Notes under the pieces: model-generated | Database searches by the model: none | What the model was told of the DNA's origin: nothing | The model's input: only the letters and a program-made list of their open reading frames with translations | Shown here: positions 1 through 49,599 of the stretch, piece after piece | Layout: the number at the start of each line of letters is the position of its first letter | How positions within the stretch are numbered: position 1 is the first letter of the stretch | Origin: Antedon mediterranea | Taxonomy: Eukaryota; Animalia; Echinodermata | Assembly: GCF_964355755.1 (NCBI RefSeq) | Contig: NC_092676.1 | Location: 28,724,871 to 28,788,870, forward strand | Direction of reading: 5' to 3' | Length of the DNA: 64,000 bases | Translations under genes and position numbers: made by a program

Positions 1-9799
<9,799 letters not shown>

Positions 9800-17874: not shown

Positions 17875-17926
17875 ATGGGTTGTCACAGTGGCTTATTTTC
17901 TTTGAGCCTTATAATGCTTATTACAG
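17875..17926 (+). CDS. Signal-peptide first coding exon A (MGCHSGLFSLSLIMLIT-), probably SCUBE long isoform
   Basis: caacATGg context, hydrophobic stretch, consensus donor cag|gtaagt in phase 1; joins in frame to 22360 to give MGCHSGLFSLSLIMLITVLLPSTSS-RREP. Confidence 0.65.
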
Positions 17927-18859
17927 GTAAGTGTATTATCTTTGTTTGTATGCGATTCACCTTGCATACCAACTTGATTACACATAAACGAAGGTGCTCA
18001 CTCCTAATTTTACGCGCGCGTTCATAAGCTGATAATAAAGTGACGCGCGTGTCAACATTGTGTTGATTTCCTCACGCACTGATGTGGTAAATATGGCCGT
18101 ACTGTGCGTAAAATACTGTTCTCTTTTTAAATCCATTACATTTTTTATAGATAGAATTATGTATTCCCAACATGCAATCATGATTGAGTCCTTACGATTA
18201 CATTTGCAAAGTTGTTTTCGTTGAATTTTTTTTAAATATTTTTTTAGATAAACAAGTTATATAATTTTAACAATAAGGCTGCACTACGTGGCGGGTGGCG
18301 TCATTGCGTTTATCCACCTTAGGTGTTTAAATAGTCAGTGAATTTATACTGGTAGTGATTCGGATTATATCGGATTAATTTTTTATTTGGGGCTAATCTG
18401 TGCGATTGTTAATATATTTTATAAGAGATTAGGTGATGTTTAAGAAATTAACCCACTCAGCGTGGAGCGCCATGAGGGTAGTAGTTGACCAATGGATACA
18501 TAATAGCAAAGTTACATAACCGCTGAATTTTTACAATATGTCTTGTTTGACGTTCCATAACTCACAACTTATAATCCATAACCCAATTCTCAGCCTACTC
18601 GTTGCGTAGGCCATGTTGTTGTGAGTGTGTACTGAGTAGGCCTTAATCGACAAATTCTAAAAACTGTAAATTTTATATTTATTTACAGTCTTTTGTATTG
18701 TTAATATCTCATTTTAATTGCGTAGTTGTTTACCGTAAATCATCAATTTTGATTTCATAAAACTATTTTCACCTGAATTATTTAGCTTTGCCAAAAGCCT
18801 ACTCGATTTTCGCTCATTTAGTTGGAAGATTAAACAAATTTAAAAGACGTTACTATAAA

Positions 18860-18997
18860 AGTTGCTACCCACTCTAGGACGCAACGCAAGGATGGAACAG
18901 CGCAAGCGAATTGACCAATCAAAATCGATGGATTATTTAAATTGTTTCTTGTGATTGGTCAATTCGCTTGCGTCGCGTCCTAATGGGAACCAGGCTT
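18860..18997. mobile_element. MITE family B copy
   Basis: gacgcaacgcaag..ttgaccaatca..ttgtgattggtcaa..gcgtcctaatgggaaccaggct palindromic layout. Confidence 0.75.
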
Positions 18998-19347
18998 AAA
19001 GGTGGTTTACGCGTTTATAAAATTATGTTGACAAGGAATAACAAGAGGGGCACATGTTAGCATGGGTAATCAGCGTGTATCAACCCCGTGTAAGAATTGA
19101 CTGAACCACCAAGCAGCAGGACCCTAACCACTAGTAATTTGTTAGCTATGACGTCATCAATCAATCAAACGTATACTCCATGTCTTGGAATTATGTATTA
19201 TGACATGTCATGTTGTTAATTTGACAAGAGCATGTTGATGGGTCGTCAACGTATTTCCGAGGTCTGTCAATAGATCAACCCTAATACATTTAAAAAGTTT
19301 GTACGTAAAGTAAAGTTTAAAATGCAATGGGGAAATTTTATTAAGAA

Positions 19348-19656
19348 TTTTTATTTTATTTATTACACCTTATTTATAGAGGGTGACCCTAAACAGCGTA
19401 TGCTGGCAATCAAGGGGCCCTCTTGATGAGTGACAGTGGCTGTGTACTAGTAACCCCCTACTTGTCTCGAAAGATGTACTAGGTTCTTTAAAGTGCACAT
19501 GAGCCAGATGTGTACACTGGACCTACGGTTTATAATTCTTATCCAAGACTCGTTCTACCACCAGAACCATGGAGCGAGTTAGGCTCGAACCCTTGCCGTT
19601 GTTAATATGGCAAGGTATTACGGTTCCACTGTCTTAACCGCTTGGCCACTCACCGC
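19348..19656 (-). mobile_element. tRNA-derived SINE with Deu/Nin-like central domain
   Basis: Minus strand: A box tggccaagcggttaag, B box ggttcgagcc, body ggataagaattataaaccgtaggtcc..ctttaaagaacc..ttcgagacaagtagggg (recalls the Deu/Nin domain), A-rich tail aataaataaaataaaa. Confidence 0.75.
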
Positions 19657-20894
19657 GAAGTAACAGATCAGTTTCTTCAAAATATTATTGGGCAAAACAA
19701 AATTAAAAATTCAACACTGACGCGCGCGCCTTACTATCCACTAAACTTTTGAACGCATGCGTCCTAAATCCACTGAGGTTTTGAACGCGCGCGTCAACTT
19801 GTTCATGATGCCACTGCCGATTAGTGTTACAATGAAATATTTAACCAAATTGAATGTTTAATACGTGATAACATCTCGTATACTCTTGGGTTGTAAGTTG
19901 CAATAACTTACGACTTCTCCTTTGTGTGAGGGTCATGTACATACAATACCAGATTTTGATTGATAGATTCTGTTTGACGTATTGCCAATCTTAAGGACAT
20001 TCCTTTATTGAAACTGAATAATATAATTTTAACATATTATTAGTAGAGTTTAGATAAATTAATCATCCATTAAATTCAAACTATTTAAAACTATCGTGTA
20101 TTCAACTATTATTAAATAATACGAATAAATGAAAATGTAAAATTGTTTTTGTATTGTAGTAGATCTGCACCGATGGTGGTTAGCCTCGTATAGACGGAAT
20201 TAGAAGTTCTCATTGGGCTATTGAATAATTCAGCTACATTTATCTTCAAATTAAATGAATTTTAACGGTTGTTTTATCATGAAACGAAACGAAATAACAA
20301 AAATTAGTGACATTTATCTTCTTAATTAAAATGATAATTAACCAAAAGAATATTTATTGCGGTGTAGTAACGACGTGGTTCTTGGAAAGGTCGACGTTGG
20401 CTCGATATTTCATCAAATAAATTATAATTTTATATCTTAGGACTCTATATTCGTCGAGGAAATCTTGTTAACATTTATTACATAGTCAGAGTAGAGGGAA
20501 TTCATTGTAAAGTCTACTAAATGTGACTATTCCCTGGTTGCATGTTTTTATTTAAGCTGTACTGAATGTTTTATTTTCTCTCTTAAAATAGCTCAATATA
20601 TTAAGTTTCTATTCATATAACAATTATAATAATAGTTCCAATAATTTCTTGCATATTTGCAGCAACTGCTTAAATTCTTGAATTATTTTACCCACGTTGG
20701 TAATATTTTAATAATTTAACACTCTCTTCGAACCTATCCCAACATTTTTGGAAATAGTGTTTCGTAGATTGTCAAATGTTACTGTAACCACTGGACCTAT
20801 ATTTCATTTTAAAAAAGTGTCTAGTATTTTGACGCATGGTTCTTAAACACGTATGCACGTATACTGTGTCTACTCTCCTATGCTATGTCGGTTG

Positions 20895-21363
20895 TTATTG
20901 GTCAAGTTTAAGTTATTTGCGTGTTTGCGTTGCGTCCTAGTGTGAAACAAAGCTTAAGTTAGTTGCATGTACGTGTTTGCGCTGCGTCCTAATGTGAACC
21001 AAGCTTAAGTTAGTTGCGTGAATACTTCGTCTTGCGTTTCGTCCTAGTGTGAACCAAGCTTTATTATGTTGCGTGTCGATATCTGCGTTTCGTCCTAGTG
21101 AGAACCAAGCTTAAGTTAGTTGCGTGTACATGTTTGCGTTTCGTCCTAGTTTGAATCAAGCTTAAGTTAGTTGCGTGTACATGTTTGCGTTTCGTCCTAG
21201 TTTGAATCAAGCTTAAGTTAGTTGCGTGTACGTGTTTGCGTTGCGTCCTAGTGGGAACCAAGCTTAAGTTAGTTGCGTGTACTACCGTTTCGTCCTAGTG
21301 TGAACCAAGCTTAAGTTATTTGCGTGTACGTGTTTGCGTCCCAGTGGGAACCAAACTTAAGTT
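20895..21363. repeat. ~51-bp tandem array (about 9 units) built from the right end of MITE family B
   Basis: Unit agttagttgcgtgtacgtgtttgcgttgcgtcctagtgggaaccaagctta contains the family B TIR. Confidence 0.9.
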
Positions 21364-21982
21364 AATGCTAATGAAATTCAAACCGGAAATATTCAGGTAG
21401 CCAGATTATTTATTAGTATAGGCCTAAAATGAAATTTCATAACTCGGAAATGTCAGAGTAAATCAGTCAACAAGTTTTCTTTAATATTTATTGTTTAATA
21501 TTTTATGGCAGTACACTCCTTTAAGAATGTGACTACATACTTGTACACACATAATGCATAATGTATCTTATCTACTGTTGAAGGTCACTGATTATTATAC
21601 ATTCCGTGATTTTCGTAGACTCCCATCTGACTAATGAATGATGACTTGAAATGACATCGCGTAAACTAGGGCATCTTTGTGTAGTACACTCCAGTTAGTC
21701 GTCGTATGCTGGTTATAATTAAATTTTTTCGTGCATTTCTTGCCTGGCCGGATGATGAAAGATTAACAAATATTTAAGGAGACAAAAAAAGACTTTCTAA
21801 TAAACTTTAAAAAATATTCTATTTGAAATTATAAACTTATATAGGCAAGTATTGATTTGCAGAAAGTCGTACTAAATGGAGAGGTTTAAAAAACCACAAT
21901 AACTCGTCATTTACCGTATGTAAAAAATGGAATGTATTCCTAGCAAGTCTACATCTTTTTCGTTGCTATACTTGTCGTAGTC

Positions 21983-22119
21983 TTACCCACTAGAGACGCA
22001 ACACGTAACGCAACGTAGTGATTTGACTAATCACGAGCGATGGATTATTCGAACCGTCTTGTTTGCGTTGCGTCTACGTTCTTGTGTTGCGTTTCTCTAG
22101 TCTAGTAGGAACCAAGCTT
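21983..22119. mobile_element. MITE family B copy
   Basis: cccactagagacgcaac ... ctagtaggaaccaagct. Confidence 0.75.
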
Positions 22120-22359
22120 TAAGTTTATAATATGTTAAATCGACAGTAATGGCACGCGCACGCATAAATACACATTGAAGTACGGTACACTATTTACAAG
22201 CGAAGAGTGGTATTGTAATATAATCTCATTCTTTCCTAACTGTACTAATATTAATACTGTAGTACCAACTGAATCATTGTTGTTTTAGGTAGGCCTACCA
22301 ATTATATTCTTATTAATCACCGTTTTTTATCTTCATTCATCATTTTTATTTTCATAAAG

Positions 22360-23007
22360 TGTTACTACCAAGTACATCGTCTCGAAGAGAACCAGGTGTA
22401 AAGTTAGACCTACGGAGCGGCAATGTAACAGGTTCAAGTGATTGTATACAGATAATCGTGCCCCCAATCCCGTCGAACAACGGACTATGTGACTCCCAAG
22501 CTGTAGTAAAGGTCGACTTCTCTGGAATATGCAAATCTGTCAAGTTTGTCTTGATGTACGGTGATAATCCTACGTTATGGACAGTAGATATATCTGACTC
22601 GCAGACAGGGGACGGGTACGGGGGAAGTCGAGATCAAGTAAAAGCGTCAAACATCGCTGAAACGCAAATATTTAATAGACAGATGCGTATTTACAGCAAC
22701 AGTCTCCCGGGACACACAGACGCAACAATCGACGGGGGATTACTGCTTAAAGTTATTGATAATATTGCAGAAAAAGGAAGTAGATTAACTTTACAAATAA
22801 GTGATGAGAGGATACAGTGGAATAATCACAAATCTGAGAAGGGTGTGATGAGGAACAAGTACCTCTACACTTTAAGCGGACAAGAACCTATATTTGGGGA
22901 TGAACTAGAGTATAATATATATGCAGGATTTAATAGAGTTCCCGGAGGAACGTTTCGGTCGGGAACTGGTCTCTGCGATGTTAATATTTATCCAATAACA
23001 AATGAAG
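22360..23007 (+). CDS. 648-nt phase 1-1 coding exon for an uncharacterised extracellular globular domain; probable SCUBE N-terminal extension
   Basis: Longest non-TE open frame in the 10-34 kb interval; pyrimidine tract + AG at 22358-59; donor gaag|gtaagc; 4 Cys; protein-like motifs WTVDISDSQTGDGYGG, LYTLSGQ, IYAGFNRV..RSGTGLC; no stop, so it must splice downstream. Confidence 0.8.
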
Positions 23008-23082
23008 GTAAGCTCCATCATTTTACTTTTTGTACAGATGATAATAGTTACGTTGTTACAGCAAGTTAGATTGCTTTGTTTA

Positions 23083-23261
23083 AGCTTGGTTCCCACTAGA
23101 ACGTAACGCAAGGACGTAAACGCAACGCAAGTGAATTGACCAATCACAAGCGATGGCTTATTCGCTTGTGATTGCTAACTGTCTATAACTTCGCTTGTCA
23201 TTGGTTGAAACGCTTGCGTTGCGTTTACGTCCTTGCGTTACGTTCTAGTGGGAACCAAGCT
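23083..23261. mobile_element. MITE family B (PIF/Harbinger-like), intact reference copy
   Basis: Long near-perfect TIRs AGCTTGGTTCCCACTAGAACGTAACGCAAGGACGTAAACGCAACGCAAG; TTA duplication at 23080-82 and 23262-64. Confidence 0.9.
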
Positions 23262-23312
23262 TTAGAGTGAAAACTCTCAGGAAAAACCACGCAAGAAAAC
23301 TTATCTTTGTTA

Positions 23313-23480
23313 AGCGCGGTTCCCACTAGAGACACAACGCAAGGTTGTATGCGCAATGCAAGTGAGTTGACCAATGACAAGCCACTGTTCTAATGCTAAT
23401 ACTCCATCGCTTGTGATTGGTCAAATCACTTACGTTGCGTTATGTCCTTGCGTTGCGTCGCTAGAGTGAGAACTAAGCTT
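23313..23480. mobile_element. MITE family B copy
   Basis: agcgcggttcccactagagac ... ctagagtgagaactaagct. Confidence 0.8.
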
Positions 23481-26400
23481 TAATGCGTACGCGCAGCAGC
23501 ACAAGTACACGCAATGCGATTATTTATCGTCGATTGTGATTGGTCAAATGATTTTGTTACTGGTCATACATTGTGTCTTACAACAAGCTTAAGATTCCAG
23601 TAGGACTACATTGTATGAGGTGCGGTTATGTGTGCGAAAGAAAGGGGGATGTTTTTGTTTTCAATAATTATACCACGGTGTTAACCGCTGACAATTAATA
23701 TATGATTGATTGCGGTGGTTTGACCAGCATGTTACCCTAGCGTACCAAATATGTTCATTGATTGTAAAAAAAGTGTTGCTGTTGATAGGTCTATGACCGA
23801 ACTCTTTTTTTTTTACGTTGAAACATTCTTTACTGAACTAAGGTAATAAAGTATACAGGTGAGACACTCCTAAACCCGAATAGGCCTACACACCTAAAAA
23901 CACCCCGATCTACGGAATTCCAATAAATTATTAAAAAGCAGGAATGCAGGTAACAACTGGAACTTGAGATTCAGTTCTCAAATCTCATAGTATATCATGT
24001 TGTTGAAATATTTGTCGGTTTTTAACAAAGCTAAATTTTATGAAATATTCCAAGTCAATCGAGTATGTAGGTCACAGATTCGATTCAACGTTCTATATGG
24101 TCTTATTATCGTATGAGGGCGTAATTTAAGTGTAACGACGCTCGGCGACGGTAATTTGACAGATTTAGTCACATGATTTTGGTACCGTTTAAAAAATGTA
24201 AAACACTATTTATACAGAGCGCCAACTACGTTCCCTTAATCTATTCTTGAAATACTGAAGTCCGTGTCCTCAATTTAATTCCAGAAATTGTGAATGTAAA
24301 TATTGTCTTTTTTATGATTTTAGTTTATTTCGTTTTTTTCTCTCTTTCTATTTTCTTTTGATTGATTATATTTGTTTGCATGGTTACAAGTAGTATGAGT
24401 TCCAGACGGAGTTTTGACTTAATATCAATTAAAAGATAAATATTTTGGCACATATGGCGCTTCATACGTATACTACTTGACAAAAATCTAAACTTCGACT
24501 GGTGGACTAACATAAAAAAAGACAATAAATACAGACTTGGAGCAAGCATAGGTTACAATGTATAATTCACGATTTACCCAGTAGTAACAAGTTCTAAATG
24601 TAATGATCCAAGGGACTTGTCTCAACAGATCTAGGAAACAATGTATTCAGCCTCGACATAAATTGTTATTATGATGTTTTCAGTGTTTATTTGACATGTG
24701 ACTGGATAGGAATTTATTGCCATCACTTTATTTACTATACAACTAAATTCTGTTCCAGTTTGATTTATCAAGCAGTTACCGTCAATTTAAGCTCAATAAT
24801 AATACGGTATAAAAGTTCACTTCCCAGCCTGGTTCTAACAAATGGAGTACATATTGAAAGTGTAGTCAGACTAAAATAGGACAAATCAATTTTAAAAATT
24901 AAAAGGAAAAACAGTAATAAATAATAATAAATGAATGCATTATTGGTAGAAATAGCTTTTACGAACGATCGTGTATATTCTATCAGTTGCGCCACCAAGT
25001 TGCCGGGAATCTATCTTCGGTGAATTCCTAGGTTTAAATTCGATTCTAAAACTGTTGATTACTAAATAAACTTTAATTACGACTTAGGCCTACTACACTA
25101 TTAATTATCGTATCGCAGGCTACCGCTTGTGATTGGTCAAATTGCTTGCATTGCGTCCTCTAGTGGGAACTACGCTTAATCTTTGCGACAACTAAAATGC
25201 AGCACATCAGTAACATTCGGATTGTTTTTACGTTGAGCTGAGTGTGTATATTGATAAAACTCGATAATGACGGACTTTAATATTAAACATCAATAAAACG
25301 AATCGCAAACACCGTGTATGTAAACTGTTTTGATTTTAAATTCTCTAGGTCACTAAAATAACATCACTCAACAATTACATCTCTTTGAAAGTACCGTAAA
25401 ACACTTTAGAAGACGGCGATGAAAGGTGGCTGTGGTATATTTTGTTTTAAGTGATGGGTCAGCTTAGGTGTTTGTATTACAGTTTCTCAATTCTTCCTGG
25501 AGGCTAGAAAACATAAACAATATTGTACCTGGATGAGATGAGAAACCTGTCAGACGATAGATTGTTATTTATTGTCTGCTTTTACATCCATAATTACAAC
25601 ATGCGCGCCAATTTCCATTATCGTGTCTCCGCGCCGCGACATTTATTCTCGCATAAACAATATTTATTCATGACGTCATTTCCTGTGTTTATGTTATTTT
25701 TAGCCTCTTAAATTCTAATAAACTGATTTACACTCTTGTTGTCAATACATCGCCTTAGGATTCGTTAAAGTGGCATCGGTGGTAATTTGAGATTGTCCAC
25801 CAAATGTGTTGAAATATTTGATCATCTCTTTCCTATTCAAACAAACCGATTTATAGAGCGACTTTAAATAAACCAATAACAACATTCCTTTCGCTAAAGG
25901 ACAATCTCCAACACCACTGGGGAGTTTTTGTTTTTTGTGACCACTTCACTTCTTCAATATCTGATTTTATTTTAGTCTTCGTTCATTTCAAACATTTAAC
26001 AACTAAACTTTATTTAAAATGCTGTGAACTATTATTAATAAATTAATATCTTTCATTCAGTTCATACAATCAATGTAGAATATTATTCTTTTGGTTAAAT
26101 TTTTCCAGGAATGTTTTTTTTTTCTTTTATACCAACATTTTCAGAATTCGCTCACATATCTTTCTTTTTTATGTATCTACATATTGACAGTTATTCTTCT
26201 TCGCTGATGAGAAGCTTAGAATTAAATCAAAAGGAACGTCGGTATTAGCCCCGAGCCAATTGGTATTAATTCGAGCGTTAGTAGCTAGCTTTATTCGCTG
26301 TAAAATTGTTTAGCTGACAGATCTCAACGGGACCCCAAAACAGAATGATTCAAACTGACATGACATGTTTAGAATGTTCATTCAACAAGCCTATGACAGA

Positions 26401-27039
26401 TTGTTTTTGTAACACCAATATTGCTAAGCGTTTTTTCTGTCGAATATAATTTTCATTTTATGAAACACAATCCATAATTTGTTGTCATCATCTAAACATT
26501 TAGGCCCAGTAATATTTCGTGAAACATAGCCTAGTCAAAGCGGTATTTATATTGCTGTTTTTGGAATTTTTTTTATGTTTGTGACGTTTTAGTATGTCTT
26601 TAAAGTAAACGTCATTTTCTTGGTAAAAAATAATTAAGGGTTGCGAACACTATTATGTTATTGTGTTTTGACGTAACCCCTTGACCAATTCAATCGAATA
26701 AATATATGAAAAATAAATCCATGCAATTGCTAGATTAAAATTTAATTGGATTTCATCAATTGCAATTTGGAGAAGGGAGGAGTACTCACATATCTAGTTT
26801 TTTGTCTTGAACAAAAAGAACCGTTGTTATTGATATTACACGGATATATTTAATTTTTTTTTTAAACTAGATTAGAAAAGTAAAAACAAAACCATATGTT
26901 ATAATTAAACTCTTATGTTTAATTATACTTTTACAAACGATTTAAGATTTATCAGTTGACTGTGTCGTAAAAGTTTATTTGATTAGCACATGGGGTAACA
27001 CGTTCAATCGTGAAGTAACTTGGAAATACCACTTTATAT

Positions 27040-27199
27040 AGCTCTTTCTACACTATCAAACTAGTTTGAAAAAAAAGTGTGATGTGCCGAAATATGATAG
27101 TGATATGCCCAAATATGGTAGTGGTATGACATCATCATGCCCATATATGGGCACATCACATTTTTTGTCACATAAAACCTTGATAGTGTAGACAGAGCT
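27040..27199 (+). mobile_element. MITE family A, full copy
   Basis: Both TIRs and the internal gatatgcccaaatatggtagt repeats. Confidence 0.85.
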
Positions 27200-28276
27200 T
27201 AAAAGAACATTTGGCATCAAAGAACAAAGCTAACATTCACAATTCATACAAATTGAAACATAATTTAAAACAGAAATGAATCCAAATGTATCCTATCTTT
27301 TGGAAATATGTACATACGGAATTCGAAATGGTTCTGGGTTTAGGCTATTTCGTTTCTTGTTGACTTATCATCTGATATACCTATTATTTGGGTATCTCTT
27401 CTGGTAAGTGTAAAACCTTTCTGAATCTAAGTAACTAGTAATATTTTCTTCATAAAAAATCATGATTATACAGAAGTAGAAAACTAAAATGTGTATTTAT
27501 CCATTTTCCCATACTCTGTGATGTATTTTGAGACTTTTAAGATATATAATATATCTTAAAAGTATAAAATAACAGAGACCGGTTTTCAAAGTGCAGAAAT
27601 GGTTTCCCCACAGTACTGTACCAGAAATCAAAGATATGCAATTAAATAAAAGGAAGTTTATTTATTATTTAATCTCTGGTATTTCATCTATATGCACGTA
27701 GTAGTCTGCTGCTAGTCAGTGTTCATTATATATCCGTTAGCGATTCTCTTGCTGAAATGAATCCGACACTAATTCCAAATTAAATACAGGTGATCGGCGG
27801 TAATATTTCCTGCAAAATTCGACGTTTGCACCGAGAAAAAGTCGTCTGCAAATGTGTCAGATTTGACATAACTTGACCGGCAGACTTTCTAAAAGGTGAA
27901 TATTAACTCAATAGTGTTAAACAAAAATTGAATCAATTGAATGAAATTTACTATTATTATAGTATAGTATCTTAGTATCGTTTGTATTTACTTTATGCAA
28001 CTTATGACTTTGGATAGTTATTACGTAAGTTGTGTAGCAATGATGGGCTGTACCATTTCTTTATTTTCACCTGTTGAGAAAATGGTAGAATCTTATTGAT
28101 AGACTTTGTTCACTCCCTCTTTGTGATGTAGAAAACCTTGCCAACTTTTCGACGGAAGAAGAGCGGTATATTTTTACCTGAGTGTGGATTTAAAGTATAA
28201 AATATAGTATGCATGTTGGACGATACGACGACGCAATCAGTCATCGCGCCTTTTTCATTTTATTGACTATAAAACG

Positions 28277-28337
28277 ATGAAGACTATTTGTCTGTTTCAT
28301 GTTATGTGTTTTTTTCTTACTTACAACATCTCTCAAG
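28277..28337 (+). CDS. Signal-peptide first coding exon B (MKTICLFHVMCFFLTYNISQG), probably SCUBE short isoform
   Basis: ATG, basic residue, hydrophobic core, SQG end; consensus donor aag|gtaagt in phase 1; TATAAAA at 28196 and Inr-like TCAGT at 28237 upstream. Confidence 0.6.
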
Positions 28338-30179
28338 GTAAGTTAGATCGTCATGAAATACAAACTATCTTTTTCAAATAACTATTTAATTTTTGCATCA
28401 GCAGCACATATACCACGGTGCATCCAAAGAAAGAAGTTAAAGCTAAGCATACACTAATAATAATTAAACTAAATAATGATCGGTTACCAGCGTACATTGA
28501 TTAGTTTGATATAACAAATCTGAATAAAATTAGGCATACCATTATGATTCAAAATGTCGAACTTTATTATTGTTCATCTTCAGTTTGTTAGCTCTTAAGA
28601 TTTGTCTTTCTGTATTTACCACGAGATCGTTGAAGATGTCGGTGTATTTTCATCAAAGTTTCTCAAATTGTTTATTAAACTACTAAGTAGAGTTGCCTGA
28701 GAGTTGCCCAACAATTATTATGGTTGTTTTATACATGCTATCTTAAACATTATAATGAGCTAAGAAAGAGGCCACGGTACTTTTATGTAGAATACTGACA
28801 GATCACAAAGGAAATGATTGGGTAGGTTTATGGAGAATTTCCGTGAGAAATATGAGAATTGGTACAAAGTGGTATCCAACGTGTTTAAACTCGTTTATTT
28901 AGCCTCGTAAGGGCCATTTTGCTATGGGTACAGAGGCTGTGATGATCGTATTCCCCGCTGTCAGTATTTGTATTGTAAAACACGGCCCTTAATCCACAGT
29001 GGCAGGCAACTGCGCGGCTCATTGTTGATAAATAGGCCGCTTAGTGAGCTTGCGGGGACATGTGATATTTCTAAGTCTGTATAATTATATTACGTTAAAA
29101 GTCACATTTGGTTAAAAGTGAGTGCATTTCGCACTGAATTCGTCCTGACATTTTGACTCCTGTTTGACGCATTGGACGACGGCTGCACAGTTTGACGCAC
29201 GTGGGAGTAGTGTGTGCATAAATGCACGCAATCCGTCGCGTACTTGTTGGTAACGCGCGCGTGCACTTTGTTAACGCGAGCAATTCAACTGTCTCTGTGT
29301 TGTCTCACTTGAACAGTTCATTAAATACCGACAGATTTAGCTTGATCATCCCATAGGCCCAAACAAGACCTTGGTTTAAATCAAATTAAGATTGTAAGTT
29401 TCTCAAGAGAGATAACAAGGTAATTGTATTGTTATTTGTTACATGAATTCGGAATTATGAGCATCCCTCCATAGTTACGAGTTATCAGACAACGGAAAAC
29501 TTTAATTATCAACAATAAAAAACAAGCAATTACAATGCAACACGTGCACATTTACACCTAATTAACAGATATATACTAATAATCATGTCTGGTGATGATT
29601 GGTCACTTCCGGTCACTGTTCTTCCTTTCTTACATCGTAAAAGCAAACCGTGAATCGCCATTGTCGTCATCTTCGTTGTTATCATGCTTATGCTGAACGT
29701 CATAATCATCAAAGTTAAAATCGTCATTAATTATAAAGTAGGCCCTACTTCGAAAGTTACAGCATAATTTCACCTTAATAATGGATGTCTATAAATGGGT
29801 ATAAAATGTTGCCACATCAAACTATGTTCCAATCCCAGACATGGTTCCATCAAATGTTTACTTACAGTGTCGCTCTGTAACTATATTTATCATTAGATAA
29901 TATTTGTGCATCCTCCCAGAGGTTTGCAAAATGTACCAACATTAGCACTCATCGTTAAATATAGTTTATCAATCTCACGAGAATTCTTAAATAAACGTTT
30001 GTTTTACATTATGGCGTTTGGATAAGACTTCAATTACGTCATTAACATGCTTCATTATGTTATGATTAGTTCAAATTTAACATTTTTAAATTTATGTGTT
30101 GACACTTTAAACAGGTTAAATTCTCTGCTGATTCTTTTTTTAGTTTCGTGACTTCGATATCTATAAATGTGCTAACGTA

Positions 30180-30310
30180 ATGCTTGGTTCCCACTAGGAC
30201 ACAAGCAACGCAAGTAATTTGACCAATCACAAGCGATGGACTATTCGAACTGTCTTATTGGTCTGCACGCTTCTATTTCCTTGCGTTTCGTCCAAGTGGG
30301 AAACTAACTT
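30180..30310. mobile_element. MITE family B copy
   Basis: gcttggttcccactaggac ... gtccaagtgggaaactaact. Confidence 0.75.
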
Positions 30311-32004
30311 AATTCTCGTGAGTTTCATACAGAGCCTGGCAAACCTTTTGTATTGTGTGCGATATGTTTAATATATTTTCAACGACGCATGCGTATACTG
30401 ATTCTACCGGCATGTTTCAAATCAAATTCAGACTATAATTGTATCACTATTTATAAATATGTTTCCTTGTTATCGTAGGTTAGAACTAAATTGGATATTA
30501 TATATTCCATCCATGCCCCACGGACAAAGTAGAAAATAAGTTGTTCGTTGTTCTTGTTCCTTAAAGATGTTTTGTCCCCCAAAACATGAAAATGAAAGTT
30601 ATTAAAAAGACTTTGAATAGGTAATTTTGCAGTTTTAATCAAGTTAATCACTTTCGTAGATACAAAATTAAAAAAAATAAATGTGTCACTTATAAAAAGT
30701 AAAAATCAACGGTTAAATTCAATCAAAGTAGACTTCCAGTCAATTTTACAATGTTATGCTTTCAATTAGTTTTTTAGGTAAATAATTTATTTGTCTATCC
30801 ATGGAGGTATTGATAACTCCATGGTCTATCCAATTTTTGGTCCAAATGAATAAATATTATGTTACATTAAAATATGTTTTTATTTTAATGAATGTTTTTA
30901 AAAAAAGAATATGTCGAAGTGATGCTTACTCAGTTTGAGATATAAAATATGATGGTTGATGTAGTCATTATCAGATACGGTTGTTTTACAATAATTTAAT
31001 AAAAATGTAGGTCTATTAAGATTGCCCTTGTAATAATAATTATAATAACCGCATATTAGTTCTTAGAAACCTAGTTTTGGTATTCATATATATGATTACA
31101 GATTCACAGCACCAGCAAACCGATTATGTTTGACTTTTGGCCAACTTGTTGTTGGTGTAGGTTTGTACGCGTAGTTCCAGATCTAGAAAAATTCAGTCAG
31201 ACAAAAAAAAAATCAGTCAGTCTCCGTTCTTTTTTTTTAATTGGAAATAAATTTAAAAACTAGGAGAACAACAGCAGCTGGACATTAAAAAGCGACAATT
31301 AAAAAGTAAAAGTAACTCATTTGGAAACTAATAGTTTTTAAACTTTGAAGAAAACGAAATTCACGATTGAGAGCGGTTCGGTAAAATGTCGTTTCATTTT
31401 TGTTATAAGTTCAGAACTTGTTCACGCGTCAATAACGCAAAGGTGCATTTTGAACTCGTTAATTGATTCGCAGACGGTAACAGCCGCTTTCTCAACATGC
31501 GTTTGCTTGTCTCTGCAGTAGCGTTACTTTGAGTACAAGCGTTTTGACACGATATGCTCTTGCTCTGTCTGTAGTTGTCAATGTTGATTAACCTTAGCTA
31601 GACTCTTCAGTGTAATTATCATTCTCTTTCCCTCTATTAAATTGTGTTGACATGGTTCCTTCCAGCAAAATAAAAATCTATGGAACGTCAGTATATAGAA
31701 AACTTAAAAAAAAAAACGTTTAAAATATGTATGTTAAAAATTTCTAAACGTTTTCGTCTGCCTTTCTGCTTTTTCTTTCTGCGTCAGTTGCGTGTATTCC
31801 GTCGGTTGTTTTTTCAACATCTTCGTGTACGTAGCCTACGTTAATAATACTCTTATTTTCTTGTAGGCCTATACGAAACAGCTTCAACTTGCTGTTTATT
31901 ATAGTTCAGTTACTTATTAAATAGGTCAACCTTAATGATATAATAGTTAGATAAAATGTTTTCCATTTATTTATCTTGATGAAACGCATTAACATGTCAT
32001 ATCA

Positions 32005-32437
32005 AACATCGGAAGTGTGACGTATCGCCTGACTCGTCGCCGTTCTGGCTAACTGACGTGCCCCCGCTGTTTTTGTCGGCGCACTTGCTCTCAGTCGTAC
32101 ATCTGGCACGATTTTAGCGTCAGCGTGTTTTAACACGTTTATTCGACCAACGTCAAAAGGCCAAGTTGGGGTTTAAATTATTTTCAAAGATAATTAGAAC
32201 AAGCAGCACGAGGGTTGAATGCCAATTGTGTTTGTTGGATGATTCGATGAAGTAAAGCAGACGACACTGATTGAAACATGGAATCAGGAGGCGCGCGGAT
32301 GCAGCATTTAATTTGTCACTTGGGTTGGTGCGCGCAGAGTCGCATACGCAGACCAGACGCTAGGAGGAATTGAACCAGGTTACTCTCGGTCCACAACCAG
32401 ACAAAATGTCACGTTTCTCTGGTACAACAACCAAAGG
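32005..32437 (+). promoter_or_regulatory. CpG-rich promoter-like segment with a possible third first exon
   Basis: cggaagtgtgacgta, tgacgtg, Inr-like ctcagtc near 32090; short MSRFSGTTTK-G frame ending at a phase-1 donor aag|gtgaaa (32437). Weak. Confidence 0.35.
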
Positions 32438-33407
32438 TGAAATTTCGATTAAATCGTCACATGCTTTGTCAATCAAAATCCCTGCTAATGAAATCAACCT
32501 TTTATATAAATAACATATATAAAGGGGGTACAGTGTCGTGTACATGGAATGGCCATTAAGACCTAAACTTAATTGAATTAGAACCTTAGAAACAAAGGTA
32601 GACTGTGTGAATATAGGACGCCAACTATCATTAACTTTGTCATAAATATTCGTTATTATTGGAAAGGTTTCTTAAACTAAACTAAACTCAAACTAAATGG
32701 AATGGAATAAGAATCTTATGACGAAATGAGGTTTATATGAATAGAGCTCCTTTCGTTGATTTTTCATATTTCATATAAATTGTTCGAATTCAATTACTTG
32801 TTAAGATCTACTTACTAAACGTGTCATTTGTGTGCTTTTGTTTTATTACCAGTACCAGTACGTTTCAGGGTCAACATCCTGGTGCCTCAATACAACAAGT
32901 ACAATCGATGGAATAAATCATTGCTCCCATGTGCAAATTAATTACCACATGTTACGGCGCTTGTAACTAATTTAAAACAAATCGAATTTGTAAATCAATC
33001 AACATAACACCTTTAGTTTATTTTTGGCCTTTAAATGTGTGACTGCAACCATGAGGCATCACTTGTTTGTGCAGAATAATTGTCAGGAAGTGAGGGCGTA
33101 GAACGAAGATATTGATTGGTCAAACTTTTGGCCAATCATTGTGTATAAAATCTTATCTTGTTTTCAGCGCGTTAGAGTTATGCAAATGAGTTGTTTATAC
33201 GTTTGGATTTTTTGTTTACAGATTTTGTGTAGATTTTATATACATTATTACTATTACCTTTCATTAGCATAAACGTTCGGAGGCTACTTTTTCTAGGCTA
33301 CTGTAGCCTTGGCGTCCAGGGAAACGAGATTATTTTCTAAGGCATACATTATAAATAATGTTTTTTATTCAAATTAAAATGTAAATTTCTGTCTTTTTCG
33401 TCTTTAG

Positions 33408-33452
33408 GATCAGGAGGTGGTGAGGTTACTACCTACACCTCCATTTTTCCTG
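33408..33452 (+). CDS. Putative 45-nt phase 1-1 cassette exon (GSGGGEVTTYTSIFP) upstream of SCUBE EGF1
   Basis: Pyrimidine tract + tttag acceptor, ctg|gtgagt donor, open in the phase of the EGF exons. Confidence 0.5.
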
Positions 33453-33994
33453 GTGAGTAACAAGCAGCCAATCAAAAATCTCCATTTCAATCACGTGCTG
33501 CCATTATGCAAATTATTATTATTATTAAATTATAAATACACTTATTATATGGCATTGCTTGTGCACAATTTATTGTCAATAAAAAAAATCATAGCGTTAT
33601 GCTTCACATCATTTAATTTTTAATTCATTTTTTTTTAAAATGTTAATTTATTTTTAGCGATGCAATGAGGCAAATATGTAAATAGTTAATCACCGTGTGG
33701 GCAGATAGTTTGCACAATGATGTGAAACTGCATGTTTTTATAGCAAATATGAAATTAAGAAACTTTTGAGTCTTATCATGGTTTAGGCCTAAAGGAAGTT
33801 AAATAAATTGTTTAAAGGAATAAAAAAAAAAGTTACAATTTATGTTGCTTGAAAATGTATTGTTTTGTATATATATATATATATATCCTGTGCAACGTAG
33901 TTTTGTACTCATTGCTAATGTTGTAAATTACATTTCATTGGTGTAACTTATAATGAGTTTTTTTCTTCACAGTTTTTCACGAATGCATGCATAA

Positions 33995-34197
33995 AGCTCT
34001 GTCTACACTATCGAACAAAACAAAAACATTTGTGATGTTCCCAAATATGGTAGTGATATGACGTCATCGCGTCCGTATATGGGCACATTACATTTGTTGT
34101 CACGTGTTATAGTGTGTAGAAGCTAGTTTGTACAAACAAAAAGTGTGATGTGCCCATCACATATTTTTGTCACATGTTTGTCAGTGTAGACAGAGCT
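33995..34197. mobile_element. MITE family A, rearranged copy
   Basis: Both TIRs with a duplicated interior. Confidence 0.8.
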
Positions 34198-34451
34198 TTA
34201 CCCTGAGCCATACATCAATGCATGATTTTTTCGGAAATATATTTTTCTACAATTATTTTTTTTTTAAATACAGTAGGCCTAAACCATTTTTTATTTATCG
34301 AAGTTATTCATCAGTTTACTATCATATTCCTAAATATTAAGATTTAATTCCATTTTATTGAACAATATGTTATGCATGTACTTTTATGATATCAAGGAAG
34401 ATTGTTATACATTGCAAATACGTATAATAATGCACTTCATATTATATCTAA

Positions 34452-34600
34452 AGCCCGGTTCCCACTAGAGATGCAACGCAATGACGTAGCAGCCACAACG
34501 CACGCGAGTTGACCAAAGCGACAGTTCGAATACTTCATCGCTTGTGATTGGTCAAATCACTTGCGTTACGTTGCGTCTCTAGTAGTAATCAATAAGCATT
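34452..34600. mobile_element. MITE family B copy
   Basis: agcccggttcccactagagatgcaacgcaa ... gttgcgtctctagtag. Confidence 0.75.
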
Positions 34601-34634
34601 ACAAGGAATACAAATTGTTTAATTTTTGTCACAG

Positions 34635-37600
34635 GTGTGGACGAGTGCAATGTAGATACTAATGAAGGGTGCTCGGAAAATGAAACCTGCATCCCCACAA
34701 GTGAGAATCAAAAATGCTCGTGTAAACAGGGCTTCAGACGGACTCATTTAAACTGTCAAGGTAGAGTATACGTTTCTGGTTTTCTTGTTTTGTAGAATCA
34801 ACTATAGTTAAAGAATTATTTTGTAGGGATTTTTAGAAATTTAATTTCATATTTATCTGATTGGGTTATTTACTTTTGATTTTCAAGATATCGACGAATG
34901 CAGTGGTAGCCTGGGTGAGGCGTGTGTCCACAGATGCATCAATATACCTGGTAGTTATCATTGTTCCTGTTTTAATGGCTTTGTGTTAGACATTGATGGC
35001 ACAAATTGCATTGGTAAGTGAAACATAATCTTAATCATATCATAATCATAATCAACTAGCCTACATTATAATTAACGATCTTTCGATACGTTGCTCTTAT
35101 TTTAGAACATCTCCATATCTCTCATTTCTTTTATTCTTAAAACTTATCAGTATGCGTATTATCCACCAGTAGCCGTATTCACCAATCACACTTAAGTGAG
35201 ATATTTCCCTTAAATATTAACTATTTCACTTAACTCAATAAATATTTAAGTATTTCCCTTAAATTGTTTTCATTTAGATAGGAGATTTTTTTGTTCATTT
35301 TAAGGGGTAAGTGTTTCTCCCTTAGCCCAAGTGAGGATAGTGAATACGGCCATTGTAATATTGTATAATTCTTGTTTTTATCGTTTTATTTATTCAGATA
35401 AGGACGAGTGTGCATTAGGTGAACATAGGTGTGAGGGCCAATGTGTCAACACAGTTGGTAGCTATGAATGTATTTGCATTCATTCGTACTTGAATGAAGA
35501 TGGACTGACATGTTCAGGTGAACTGCTTTTTAATGTTTTTAAATTTATTTTATCTATTTAGGCGCATGTGGCCATGGATTGCCAATAGTAAAATAATCAC
35601 CTATCAGATAGGAGGTAGTCCCCCTGAATAGGGGCTATTTGTGAACCAGTTCACCGGGTAACCCCCTCTACAGTTTTTATGGGGAACCCTCTATTGTATA
35701 CTATTACAACCTCTTCAGTTATGTTTTAGACAGTGGAGTTGTACTTTAGGTCGACTCTAGCCTATTGCTGTACTAACTGGTCCAACTTGTTCTTTCTTCA
35801 GATGACCCAGGGTGCGTAAGTCATGACCTGAACTGCGTACACTACTGTGTGGACACGAGTGCCGGATCGATATGTCAATGCCGCGCGGGATACTCACGTT
35901 CGATAAACCGGAACAACTGCATTCGTAAGTGTTTCAGATTAATTCTTGAAAGACCTTTTCTTGAATTACTTTTTTTACACCCAGACTAAAATTGTAATCA
36001 TTTTTTTTTCAGCTAAGTGTTCCCTTGGTAACGGAGGATGCCAGCACATATGTGTTGACTCGCCTCCAGGTCCCATCTGTAGCTGTCGTCCTGGTTTCAA
36101 CCTTAACACAGATGGCCAGACATGTATAGGTGAGTTTTACTAAAGCCTTCTAAAGATGCCGTTTTAATGAATATTCTAGATAGTGTATGTTTGGCACATA
36201 TGGCGTATCATACCTATATTTAAGTTGCTGGAACCTAGTAGACAAAAAACGTCCGCTGGTCTGGTGGTGCCAAAAAATAAATAATTAACTTCTTGAGACT
36301 TGTGGCAATCCTCAGAAATTGTAAACTGTTGATTTGTACTGGGACACTTTGTATGGACGCGAGTCGTGTATTATTGTTTCTGTTTTAAATGCGTTCGGCG
36401 TCTCTGAAATATACCAACGAAGCTTAAACCAATCACGGCGCGATGGAGGATAACCAATCGCGTCGTGATTGGTCAAATTACTTATGGTTCGTCCTATAAA
36501 ATAGGTAAAACCAAGCTTTACTAAAACAAATCACTAAACCATAACACTTTGCCTGTATTGTAAATAATTGTGTATAATACTGTTTCACTTAATAGTACAA
36601 TGCTGTGATGTAGCCCATAACATAAGTTGCAATTTCTGAACTTGTTCTATCGACATGTGTTAATTTGTTACCCGTATGTTAATGTGTTAAGATAACAATT
36701 GTTGCATGTTTTTGATTTAATTTTAACTTTTGTTTAATGCTTTTAGTAACACCAGTATAACAACTGGGGGTTCTTTACTTAATTACATATCAAAATAACT
36801 AAACATTAATTAATTTATAACAAAAATTTAGAAAACGTGGACTATTCCATTATATGTAAAAAGGGGTAGAACCTTGGCATGTTTGCATGATGTAGTGTAT
36901 GTTTATGCAGTGCTAGTTACTGTATATGTCGATTTATATAGTTGATGAATCTTATCCAGAGACATGCGGACTGAACAATGGCGGTTGCTTAGGGAAATGT
37001 ACAGATACAGACGATGGCGTGGAGTGTAGCTGCCGTGCAGGATTCTGGCTCCAACTCGACAATCGCTCTTGTAAAGGTAAATGTGACAATGTTTCTTCTC
37101 GTAATACGTAGTTACGAGATTTATTTGCGAGGTTCGAGCCTTGCGCATGCGTATATCAGTGAGAATCTGTAAAGTTTGCTGTTGACTTAAAGATAATGTT
37201 CGTGCTCCTACCTAAGTTTGGATGACAGAATATTTAAGTTATGGGGACATCAATTTGTTGGTGACAAAACGTTGCTGGTTGGTTGGAAATTGTCATTGTC
37301 TATAAACTTTACGTAACAAAAATGTAATGTGCCTATATATGGACAACATGATGATGTCATATCACTACCATATTTGGGCATATCACTACCATATTTGGAC
37401 ACATCACACTTTGTCAAACTAGTTTGATAGTGTAGACAGAGCAAGGTGACATGGGGCAGTAAGTAGTGACAGAGCAATCGAGAAGTACGTAATTACAGCT
37501 AACTGAAAATAATAATATTATTTATATGTATTTTTTAGACATCAACGAATGTTTAAATAACAGAGGAGGATGTACCAATGAATGCAGGAACAAGATCGGA

Positions 37601-40600
37601 GGATATGAGTGCTTGTGTCCAAAAGGCTATACACTATCATCTAATAAAAAAACATGTGTTGGTAGGTATTTAGACCTGATGAATATGTTCTTTCTTCACT
37701 AAAGCGTGGTTCCCACTAGCGACGCAACACAAGGACGTACCGCAACGCAAGTGAATTGACAAATCACAAGCGATGGCTTATTCGCTTGTGATTGCTAAAG
37801 GCCTGTGCACACCGAACGCGAAGCCGCGAAGCGTCATGCGTCACGCGTCATTCGACGGATCGCTTTGAAAGTTGAATTGTCATGCGTCTATTAGTTTTTC
37901 TTGTCGGTTCCCACTAAACGCGTCACGATGTGCTGATTCGTCGCGATTGCTAGGCCTAGGAGATAGTGGGTTGGCCAATACAATGCTACATTTAAAATAA
38001 GATGACTGAAGTATTTCCTATGTAAGTTTAACCAGAGAAGAGTTAAATTAAAATGTAATTTAACTCTTCCCTGGTTACACCAATCACAGTGTTTGGTTTT
38101 GGTGGGAAAATGTTATCCGTTTCCAAAGCCTGAAATGTGCATGATTGTATGTATATATCACAAGGACAGAAGAAGATGTATCCAATATCAATACAGTTAC
38201 AAGAATTAAAGCATTTATTGCATGTTGATTACACGTACATGTGATCTGCTGACTGTATTTATTAGTGGTGTTACAAATATCTTTCAACAGAGGTTATTAT
38301 AACCATATAAAACATTTCATATAAACACGAACTGGGAATCTTCCTGGGTTTGTCATTTTCAAATATAAACTATAGGCCTAATATTAATGTAAAGTTTTCA
38401 CATTCATTTTCTAATTATTATTAAATATTATATTATTCATGACAAAACATACAGTTTTTTTCTCATTAGTTTAAATGTAATAAATATCCCAAACTCATAT
38501 TTACACTGTATATTATCTTATGACTTTTTCACATAAATACACTTATTGAAATAGTGAATCATTGTTTTTAAAAGGTATCATTAAATATCAACCAGATTTT
38601 CTTTTTTACTACTCCTGAATACTTTCGCAAAATAATATCAAAATAATAAATTTAAAATGTATCATCCCAAAAAAAATGAAAATTGAAGAAATATTATTAT
38701 TGTTAAAAGTGAATAACTAACCCTAAAGTGTTATACTGTATTACACACAACGAAAATGTTTTAAATTATATTTTCAGGAAGACAATATAATAATCTTTTC
38801 CAAAAAATGACACTAAACTTAAAGATGTATTGTCCCATAGAATCATGAAAAATGAAGATGATTAAAATCAAATTTGAATAGGTCATTTTGTAGTTTTAAC
38901 AAAGTTAATCACTTGCATAGAAAAAAAACCCCAAAAAACTTATGTTTTCACTTATAAAATGAAAAAAATTCCATTAGCTGGCTGCCAATTTGACTATTTT
39001 TTTTAGTATTGGAGTATAACAAAACATATACATATTATATTTCCATGTGTTCTCTATTGCTAAAAAAAGACATTCAGTTCAGCTTTCCTTCTATAACCAC
39101 TTAATAAATACTAGTTACAGTCCAACTCCTCCTTAATCTCTTCCATTTTCTAAAAAAAAAAAATGAAACAAGTATTAATAAATTGCTATAGTAAGGCATA
39201 TTGCTCAAATCATTTTTTCTGGCCAATGTATGTCACCAACTGACATACCCATTTGAAAAAAGTCTATACAAACCTGTATCAGCCTCATAATTGCCAGTCC
39301 ACATTTTTGAGGAGCAATTGCTCTTAATTCCATGGCAATAATATACTGGCCGCTTAAACTACTATCTTGGTCATTGGTGGAGTTTGTAACGCTGGTAATA
39401 GCCTGAAGGATTCCATTTATCAATGTTCATCTAATTGACCTAAAAGAAACAAAAACAACAGTATTTATGTATTAATATTACTACTAGGCCTATCCTAGCC
39501 TTACAACACTAAATCAACTAAATATTAGGCCTATCAATATTAATTAATAATAATAAGTAGGCTAGGCCTAGCTAGGCCTAGAGTAGTACTGTACTCATAT
39601 TTAGTAGTAGGCTTAACCTAGGCTAGGCCTGGCCTAGCACATAGTAGACTAGTAGGGATTAGTAAGTATTATGTAGGCCTATAAGTACTACTTGGCATGG
39701 CCTAGCCTACTAGGGTATATGTAGCCTAGGCTAGGTAGGCCAAGCTAGCTAGGCTAGGCCCTAGTATTGCCTAAACCTAGGTACGCCTAGGCCTAGGCCT
39801 AGGCTAGAAATAGGCTTGTCAACTCACTTTACAAATTGATCTCTGACGCGTTTTAGGCCTAGTTTTTCTGGCATTCTTCTACACAGATGTTTGTCTGAAA
39901 TTATTGTCTTCATGCATTAATCCTTATGTTTCTGTCTGTGTATGACTTACTTCCCTTATCGTAAAGACAAGAAGGGTAAGTATTTCCATAAAGACCTCGC
40001 TCGTCAGCCACCATTTTTTTGCCGTCGGTGTCGTCGTCGATGAAATGAGAGATATTCCTGACTTCTGATTGGTTGACGAACGCAAACCGCGCTCGCGACG
40101 CCTCAAAAAGTTGACCAAGGTTCAACTTTTGAAAATTCGCGTGCGAAGCCTTCGCTGCTGTCGTTTTCAACGCGTTGAAGTTGAAATTCGACTATCGTAC
40201 ACTGTTCGCTTGTATGTTCACACTGGAAGCGTCCTTGCCTGCCGCGTGCGTCACTTTTTAACGCGAAATTCGCGGCTTCGCGTTTGGTGTGCACAGGCCT
40301 TAACTGTCTATAACTTTGGTTAAAACGCTTGCGTTGCGTTTACGTCCTTGCGTTACGTTCTAGTGGGAACCAAGCTTAAAGTGTAATGTTTGGTTTCCAC
40401 TAAAACAAAGTACCTATTGTAAGCGCAACACAAGTAATATTCATCATTTGCGATTGGTCAAATGTTTGCGATGCGCCTACGTCATTTCGTTGCGTCTTAA
40501 AGCTTGGTTCCCACAAGGAAGCAACGCAAGCGAGTTGTTGACCAATGACAAGCGAATAATATTCATCGCTCGTGATTGGTCAAGTATCTTACGTTGCGTT

Positions 40601-47052: not shown

Positions 47053-47371
47053 CGAGGAGGAATAGCCTGGCTCCAGGGGACACTTTATCGCTGTGCCCAG
47101 AACACTAACAGTTTTGTTCTGAAACGTTACAAAGGGTAGGCCTACAATATTGTATATAATATAGCAATTTTATATTTTTAATGTAATTGTGAACTTGTAA
47201 GTTCGACAAGCTTCCGATATGTTTTTGTTTGTATAGTCTAACTCTAATTTCTTGTTGTTTTTAGTTATAAGAGAGTTCATTTTCTCTACAATTAACATAT
47301 TCTGCATTTAGACTGTCGAATATGCCTAAATGTGCTATAAGCACTAATTTTGAACTATAACTGCGAATCTG

Positions 47372-48889: not shown

Positions 48890-49212
48890 ATTAATTAACT
48901 AGTTATATTCTAGGTATCAGTTTTTTATTGTTTTCATATTCCGTTATGGTAATTACTTTATTCCTATCTACCATTTACTATTATTTACTAATTTAATTTT
49001 AGTTACTTTTTGTTTTGTTCAGGCACTTTCAACACAAGCTTTTGCTTTTTAGAAATTGTGCCTCCTTCATAATATTGTTTTATTCATGTTAAAGGTGAGA
49101 AAAAAAATTGTATTGTTTTAACTATCTTTCTTCTCGTCATGAATTTTGTATTATATTATTTATTTTGTATATTATGAAGGAAATAAATGTTACTATGAAA
49201 TGAAATGAAATG
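47440..49212 (+). mobile_element. 5'-truncated non-LTR retrotransposon (CR1/L2-group LINE)
   Basis: Open RT frame to 48889, AT-rich 3' UTR, AATAAA near 49182 and (TGAAA)n tail; no endonuclease region. The 5' junction is approximate. Confidence 0.92.
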
Positions 49213-49245
49213 ATAACGCTCAGGGGAAATCAATCAATTCTGACA

Positions 49246-49446
49246 TTGATAATGATGATGACACAACTGCCAATGTTAATGATGATGAGACGACTATGAT
49301 GATGACGATTATGATGATTATGACGATGATGGTGATGATGATTATGACAATGGTGATGATTATGATGATGATAATAATAATGATGACGATAATAATGATG
49401 ATGCTGATAATGATGATGATGATGATTGATGTTAATGATGATGATT
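49246..49446. repeat. Degenerate (GAT)n microsatellite
   Basis: Directly visible. Confidence 0.9.
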
Positions 49447-49599
49447 AAAAATAGGTAGGCCTATATACGGGGAGGGGGGTCTTTTGCTTTATAAATACCA
49501 AATGACCGATCAACATATTTTTGTTCATCTTTTAAAAATACGTTTATCTCCTGTTTTTATATCAAATTCCGTCGCCGTCGTCATTTTATTCAATAGTTA

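Follow-up and report, generated by a model that had tools for sequence, protein, structure and literature searches.

The SCUBE proteins have been described from vertebrates as five-part proteins in which a signal peptide is followed by nine EGF repeats, a spacer, Cys-rich repeats and a CUB domain (excerpts of PMC10214685). According to the same excerpts, activity of the vertebrate proteins relies on tethering to the cell surface through the spacer and the N-glycans of the Cys-rich repeats, a furin-type cleavage separates the EGF and CUB halves, and release of Hedgehog has been reported for SCUBE2 (PMC10214685). Here we examined a stretch of 64,000 nucleotides (the window) from contig NC_092676.1 of the crinoid Antedon mediterranea (positions 28,724,871 to 28,788,870), which contains a SCUBE gene. 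Upstream of the exon for the first EGF repeat (EGF1), this gene carries exon A, which encodes a signal peptide, exon B, a candidate alternative first coding exon with a signal peptide of its own, and between them exon D, which encodes a domain without a name. A two-leader architecture, with signal-peptide exons A and B, is in our judgement well supported. Taken as a whole, the best explanation, to which we assign a probability of about 0.5, is a two-leader SCUBE whose long form would be tethered to glycans by the extra domain and whose short form would be made without this tether.

Exon structure and leader exons of the Antedon gene

The gene is a crinoid SCUBE. Exon D was found to be 100% identical to the RefSeq model XP_071955177.1 (Antedon mediterranea SCUBE, 1204 amino acids), which joins exons A, D and EGF1 without a linker and whose residues 1-27 match exon A at 100%. 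The structural parts by which a SCUBE is recognized were all present in this model. The signal peptide is followed by nine EGF repeats (by count, with EGF families matched in Pfam) and by a spacer that contains a furin-type motif, R-x-K-R, near residue 740; after this come three Cys-rich repeats (three stretches matching PF07699) and, towards the C-terminus, a CUB domain (PF00431, residues 1007-1118). The plan is the same as that of vertebrate SCUBE1/2/3, in which the signal peptide and each EGF repeat likewise lie on exons of their own (excerpts of PMC10214685). In the vertebrate reference proteins (988-1028 amino acids) the leader runs directly to EGF1, an arrangement that the candidate Antedon short form would fit, whereas the long form differs from them by about 215 additional amino acids and by a second leader exon.

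The preliminary description of the window had proposed five exons at the start of the gene (A, D, B, an optional linker and EGF1), and their coordinates and phases were borne out, with every join in phase 1 (Table 1). All six joins tried were in frame (A-D-EGF1, A-D-linker-EGF1, B-EGF1, B-linker-EGF1, A-EGF1 and A-linker-EGF1), and the separate first coding exons A and B reach one acceptor in one phase. Exon D is bordered by a pyrimidine tract with an AG acceptor and by the donor AAG/GTAAGC. An in-frame ATG at 17845, 10 codons upstream of 17875, is the RefSeq start of exon A; the orthologue of exon A in the crinoid Anneissia starts at the residue equivalent to 17875, not 17845. A hydropathy scan and inspection by eye gave both signal peptides a hydrophobic core and a small-residue -3/-1 site. 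When positions 10000-34634 were scanned on both strands for an ATG followed by 13-33 codons and a phase-1 GTRAG donor, the + strand yielded four matches, of which the three hydrophobic ones were exon A (with the ATGs at 17845 and 17875) and exon B, while the - strand, serving as control, yielded seven matches at four places, one of them hydrophobic. A hydrophobic leader pattern is thus expected about once per 25 kb by chance, and exon B therefore needs comparative evidence.

Compared with the long-form leader of Anneissia, exon A was the best of 228 phase-1 GT-ended peptides, with a score reached by none of 500 shuffles, and its sequence marks it clearly as the orthologue of that leader. When 178 candidates were compared with the short leader of Anneissia, exon B ranked first, by only 22 points to 21, and it agrees with that leader in place and phase, in the Gly at the junction and nearly in length. 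Its Cys5 and Cys11 stand in register with the short leader of amphioxus (Branchiostoma), and it is the sole candidate between D and EGF1 that combines an ATG, a hydrophobic core and a phase-1 GTRAG, with a perfect GTAAGT donor. Short leaders also resembled one another between more distant animals, the score of amphioxus against acorn worm being reached by 0 of 500 shuffles and that of amphioxus against starfish by 1 of 500; the long leader of the acorn worm Ptychodera against the short leader of the mussel Dreissena also scored 4 of 500. By eye, the short leader of amphioxus and the leader of zebrafish scube1 have 9 of 20 residues in common without gaps, which suggests that the vertebrate signal-peptide exon is orthologous to the short leader, exon B having been kept in vertebrates. 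Contigs of five public runs extend across the introns as genomic sequence does, and among the joints listed only repeat-derived ones were found, an outcome that bears on the use of exon B in neither direction. In our estimate, exon B is very likely to be used in Antedon mediterranea.

Table 1. Positions of the SCUBE exons and of other features in the window
Feature	Position	Strand	Description
MYRF gene	438-3700 and on	+	upstream of SCUBE; NDT80_PhoG, Peptidase_S74 and MYRF_ICA matches
Simple tandem array	6645-7000
Exon A	17875-17926 (52 nucleotides)	+	long-form first coding exon with signal peptide; ATG, hydrophobic core, donor CAG/GTAAGT
Partial element copies and 51-nucleotide array	20910-21366, 30178-30313, 34450-34580		in SCUBE introns
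Exon D	22360-23007 (648 nucleotides)	+	phase 1-1, no stops; unnamed domain of about 215 amino acids, predicted beta-sandwich, in one exon
High-copy element	23082-23262		72-nucleotide inverted arms
Exon B	28277-28337 (61 nucleotides)	+	candidate alternative first coding exon with signal peptide, for a short, vertebrate-like form; donor AAG/GTAAGT
Linker exon	33408-33452 (45 nucleotides, 15 codons)	+	optional, phase 1-1
EGF1 exon	34635-34760	+	acceptor common to long and short forms
EGF2-EGF9 exons	34888-41146	+	located by tblastn of XP_071955177.1; nine six-Cys EGF repeats counted
Spacer, three Cys-rich repeats, CUB, C-terminal tail	41418-46040	+	R-x-K-R motif in spacer; PF07699 three times, PF00431
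RVT_1 reading frame	47354-48886	+	long; just past SCUBE
Simple tandem array	49209-49460
SET-domain gene	50500-54300	+	partial PF00856
Flavin amine oxidase genes	55862-58990, 59673-62640	+	tandem pair

Upstream of exon B, where GC content is 33%, a TATAAAA at 28196 is followed 41 nucleotides later by TCAGTC at 28237, an observation that was not used as evidence, and no CpG island was found there by CpG content. The high-copy element, which resembles a miniature inverted-repeat transposable element, starts 75 nucleotides past the donor of exon D; partial copies of it, and a 51-nucleotide tandem array derived from it, lie in the SCUBE introns. Among the neighbours, the RVT_1 frame is likely a fragment of a long interspersed nuclear element, and the SET-domain gene is one that we take to resemble SUV420H/KMT5B. 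Both flavin amine oxidase genes appear by eye to encode a signal peptide and a hydrophobic C-terminal tail, a possible glycosylphosphatidylinositol anchor. The simple tandem arrays (a 21-nucleotide unit and a trinucleotide-like run) give rise to spurious Cys- and Met-rich frames.

Long and short N-termini in invertebrate SCUBE models

To survey N-termini in other animals, the proteins that cluster with eight long ones were sorted into long models (signal peptide and domain) and short models, giving ten species sets, of which seven contained both forms. Both were found in Anneissia (five long and two short, n = 7; RefSeq XP_033123915-21), Ptychodera (six and three, n = 9), Asterias amurensis and Patiria (seven and one in each, n = 8), and Acanthaster and Dreissena (three and one in each, n = 4), as well as in Branchiostoma, where 12 long and three short models were counted among 15 listed of 104 and one of the three short models had a leader. 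Saccoglossus had a single model, which was long. In each of the seven long/short pairs compared, the sequences converge 1-2 residues ahead of the EGF1 motif and end in a common C-terminus. Models from Anneissia, Ptychodera, Branchiostoma, Asterias, Patiria and Dreissena thus have both N-termini described here for Antedon, with a domain that carries neither name nor function in them. From this survey, a switch of leader appears very probable for deuterostomes in general.

The published annelid sequences were also examined (PMC9695228, File S10), comparing by eye about 400 characters of each row of the alignment excerpt. In this excerpt the domain, whole or partial, was present in eight of ten invertebrate rows and in none of nine vertebrate rows; the other two invertebrate rows were a crayfish sequence that has its own leader and no domain, and a truncated annelid row (PMC9695228, File S10). 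In two annelid Trinity assemblies of this file the domain runs into EGF1, so that the annelid Scube and the invertebrate models agree with the Antedon gene in both the domain and its junction. The legend of Fig. S3 in that paper states that the annelid proteins share the domain structure of mouse Scube, and the domain therefore seems to have gone unremarked there by the authors (PMC9695228, in part).

The preliminary description had held that one promoter makes a signal peptide-domain-EGF-CUB protein and another the canonical form, and had called the domain a new extracellular module. The two isoforms gained support from the models in seven of ten species sets, Anneissia included, and from the two annelid assemblies that join the domain to EGF1. 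The comparison of gene models that it had proposed found both forms in echinoderm, hemichordate, amphioxus and mollusc models, and its guess that the linker is optional agrees with Anneissia, where the 15-amino-acid linker is present or absent in long and short models alike. The novelty of the module did not hold, since SCUBEs of coral, protostomes and deuterostomes contain the domain, which is old and conserved.

The N-terminal domain and its relatives

Searches with known families returned little for the domain itself. No Pfam family was matched at E values up to 1, with weak scattered matches among 29 alignment members; no NCBIfam family was found for the domain among 132 members, the matches being to PEP-CTERM and similar tails; and a sequence search of the PDB gave no match under E 0.06. 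Neither the domain nor any of the 29 alignment members matched the L-type lectin, galectin or laminin-G profiles, and in the absence of a Pfam profile match the domain forms a family separate from the concanavalin A (ConA)-like sequence families. The best ESM Atlas scores (0.77 and 0.85) were taken as leads only. A profile search recovered 844 representatives at E up to 0.001 and 521 at 1e-10, the best 150 of which were examined. Among animals, an N-terminal copy was found in a SCUBE-like protein of the coral Oculina, together with EGF, Cys-rich and CUB parts, and a diverged N-terminal copy in SCUBE proteins of cricket and damselfly; a short SCUBE-like protein was noted in a coral. For comparison, the excerpted 2023 review lists no SCUBE homologue in fly or worm (PMC10214685).

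Between phyla the SCUBE-type domains are mostly 45-58% identical. C43 and C205 were present in all 36 SCUBE-type rows and mostly missing from bacterial copies, a distribution consistent with a disulfide between them, and Q107, R109, Y111 and L128 are invariant in SCUBE-type copies and not in bacterial ones. No vertebrate-named protein was seen in 26 + 10 + 8 matches, a weak absence; tunicates, lampreys and sharks lay outside this test. That SCUBEs of coral, protostomes and deuterostomes all have the domain points to the long form as the ancestral one; exons A and D would then have been lost on the vertebrate line, leaving a reduced protein.

Modelled by AlphaFold2 with 132 sequences, the domain is predicted to be nearly all beta (predicted local distance difference test 94.6, predicted template modelling score 0.91; 84.8 for the former with 29 sequences). 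In structure searches, ConA-like beta-sandwiches dominated the top 50 rows. The best matches were glycan-related and included the GH32 C-terminal domain (highest Z, 9.9, root-mean-square deviation 3.0, 142 aligned residues) and Streptococcus PilC (Z 9.0); galectins were matched at Z 7.5-8.1, and ERGIC-53/VIP36 in Foldseek at E about 1e-5, with template modelling (TM) scores of 0.40-0.48 and 10-12% identity. All of these share the all-beta sandwich topology predicted for the domain (Z 7.5-9.9), and as a Z of 7-8 is typical background, the comparison speaks for the fold class and for neither family nor function. With TM below 0.5 throughout, the likeness to ConA-like proteins is one of fold only, and the domain is predicted to be a lectin-shaped, ConA-like beta-sandwich.

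Homologous domains occur in extracellular proteins of bacteria (Microcoleus, Planktothrix, Prochloron, Chloroflexota, Riflebacteria and Desulfobacterota), with up to 196 bits per domain and 38-39% identity. An initial scan of genomes with animal-derived patterns found no relatives in 64 stretches; with bacterial patterns, 143 of 205 were matched and 75 loci kept, in cyanobacteria, Chloroflexota, Riflebacteria, Desulfobacterota and others. Fifty-three proteins with the domain were scanned for accompanying domains, which in bacterial secreted proteins included FG-GAP, Calx-beta, RTX, SdrD, M4/S8/C1 peptidase and SH3 domains, and PEP-CTERM sorting models were matched in 3 of 132 alignment rows. 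Bacterial copies differ from those of SCUBE in that most are without C43/C205 and many stand in tandem, in adhesin-like or peptidase proteins. Common to both are the motifs D-S..G.G.D..E and N-R..R.G.G and, residue by residue, D79, S80, G85, D91, E100, L171, Q174, G179, N191, R192, R199, G201 and G203, which are described as polar or Gly and lie mostly in loops. The polar loop residues among them (D79, S80, D91, E100, Q174, N191, R192 and R199) were conserved in 84-100% of bacterial rows and 81-100% of SCUBE rows.

A quick, unrooted tree was built from 92 hand-picked rows (28 SCUBE-type, 23 stand-alone and 41 bacterial). All 28 SCUBE-type domains fell on one branch (Shimodaira-Hasegawa-like approximate likelihood ratio test 100), and 21 of the 23 small secreted stand-alone proteins, which consist of the domain alone with paired cysteines and are probably of animal origin, grouped together apart from SCUBE. 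A single clade of the SCUBE-type and these 21 stand-alone rows was not rejected by the approximately unbiased test (p-AU 0.735), the group having been picked after the tree was seen and two stand-alone rows excluded. As the tree is unrooted, no donor between bacteria and animals is claimed. Copies from Prochloron, Crocosphaera and Planktothrix had top scores against the animal profile (194-199 bits), yet nest among cyanobacteria; convergence or back-transfer are possible reasons for these scores.

Proposed mechanism, alternatives and implications

As the first coding exons A and B are separate, we infer separate promoters. A transcript from promoter A would be spliced from A to D and, with or without the linker, to EGF1, skipping B, which has no good acceptor; a promoter upstream of B would start the transcript past D and give the short form. 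In the long form, D79, S80, D91, E100, Q174, N191, R192 and R199 are predicted to bind sugar, perhaps with calcium, and this putative lectin head may tie the protein by its N-terminus to cell coats or matrix and would keep the EGF half bound after cleavage at the furin-type site of the spacer. A built-in lectin that holds the EGF half would make the whole protein act over a shorter distance, and promoter choice could in this way determine how far SCUBE presents or carries ligands such as BMP and Hedgehog. Given the two-leader architecture, the glycan-tether role has in our estimate an even chance or slightly better.

Several observations weigh against a two-leader SCUBE with a glycan tether. 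The cluster contains a single Antedon model, a long one (1 of 1), Asterias rubens has four short models with the domain split off as a model of 304 amino acids, and the long and short isoforms are mostly automatic predictions, a kind of model that is usually backed by RNA-seq. Exon B is not significantly like the Anneissia short leader, its local score being reached by 65 of 500 shuffles, a public-contig haplotype at position 28289 alters the Cys5 codon of exon B, and the Dreissena short leader is unlike all deuterostome short leaders and so may have a separate origin. For the domain, a public-contig allele at 22632 gives D91N, which replaces a nearly invariant Asp, the structural likenesses are remote (TM 0.36-0.48, 4-13% identity), and protein-binding members of the fold were also matched (laminin-G, thrombospondin C-terminus and SPRY).

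The single long Antedon model, the weak likeness to the Anneissia leader, the polymorphic Cys5 and the one hydrophobic chance match on the opposite strand would all fit an exon B that is dead or a chance look-alike, with the long form alone being made in Antedon. We consider this improbable, as B is the only candidate between D and EGF1 and combines a perfect donor with the Anneissia length class and Gly junction and with cysteines in the amphioxus register. That A and D form a separate gene for a small secreted protein, with SCUBE beginning at B, could be read from the Asterias rubens annotation and from the existence of stand-alone family members; it is very improbable, given that models from coral to amphioxus, including those of the sister species Asterias amurensis, and the two annelid Trinity assemblies (excerpt of PMC9695228) fuse the domain to EGF1, and that exon D ends without a stop in a conserved phase-1 donor.

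Other explanations keep the same isoforms and assign the domain another role. It could be a protein-binding, laminin-G-like domain that recruits a receptor, a ligand or a matrix protein or oligomerises SCUBE, and matches to NELL, the thrombospondin C-terminus, Gas6 LG and SPRY at similar scores, as well as the SCUBE-only invariant Q107, R109, Y111 and L128, which would fit the surface for an animal-specific partner, make this an alternative of some weight. We nonetheless hold it unlikely, because the core polar motif is also present in bacteria, where animal partners of this kind do not exist, and because the top-ranked structures are glycan-related. The family is widespread among secreted proteins of bacteria and among small stand-alone ones with paired cysteines, and aquatic invertebrates have retained the domain, all of which might instead point to a sensor of microbial or mucus glycans, in immunity or symbiosis, that is coupled to growth-factor signalling. 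Immune lectins are typically expanded and fast-evolving, whereas the SCUBE copies are a slowly evolving orthologous set with the between-phyla identity given above, and the animal origin of the stand-alone rows is only inferred; such a sensor is accordingly rated a slim prospect.

The two-leader SCUBE with a glycan-tethered long form can be placed in a wider, tentative history that we regard as rather doubtful in its entirety. The ancestral animal SCUBE would have had a lectin-type domain in common with surface proteins of bacteria, probably through an exchange between these and early animals. The two-promoter switch, which would choose between a glycan-tethered short-range SCUBE and a free long-range one, would date at least from the deuterostome, perhaps from the bilaterian, ancestor, and vertebrates would have deleted the tethered form. 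If this is true, loss of the tethered form may have let SCUBE2 become a long-range carrier of Hedgehog.

A search of the open-licence literature listed no paper in which the domain or the leader switch is named; passages of PMC4729200 do not mention SCUBE, and the excerpt of PMC9695228 draws no conclusion on Hedgehog release or a BMP co-receptor role for annelid Scube. The domain is already visible in the published alignment of the latter (PMC9695228, File S10, in part). As the isoforms are likewise already contained in automatic models, the gain here lies in recognition and interpretation and not in new sequence. The variant of SCUBE with the unnamed domain is real, ancient and apparently undescribed. 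It indicates that the vertebrate SCUBE, from which the protein is known, is a shortened version of an older protein that had one more folded domain, and that the choice of leader exon keeps this domain optional across several phyla. A domain family without a name, spanning bacteria and animals, is thereby defined, and the long and short forms offer a direct handle on the evolution of the range of morphogen helpers.

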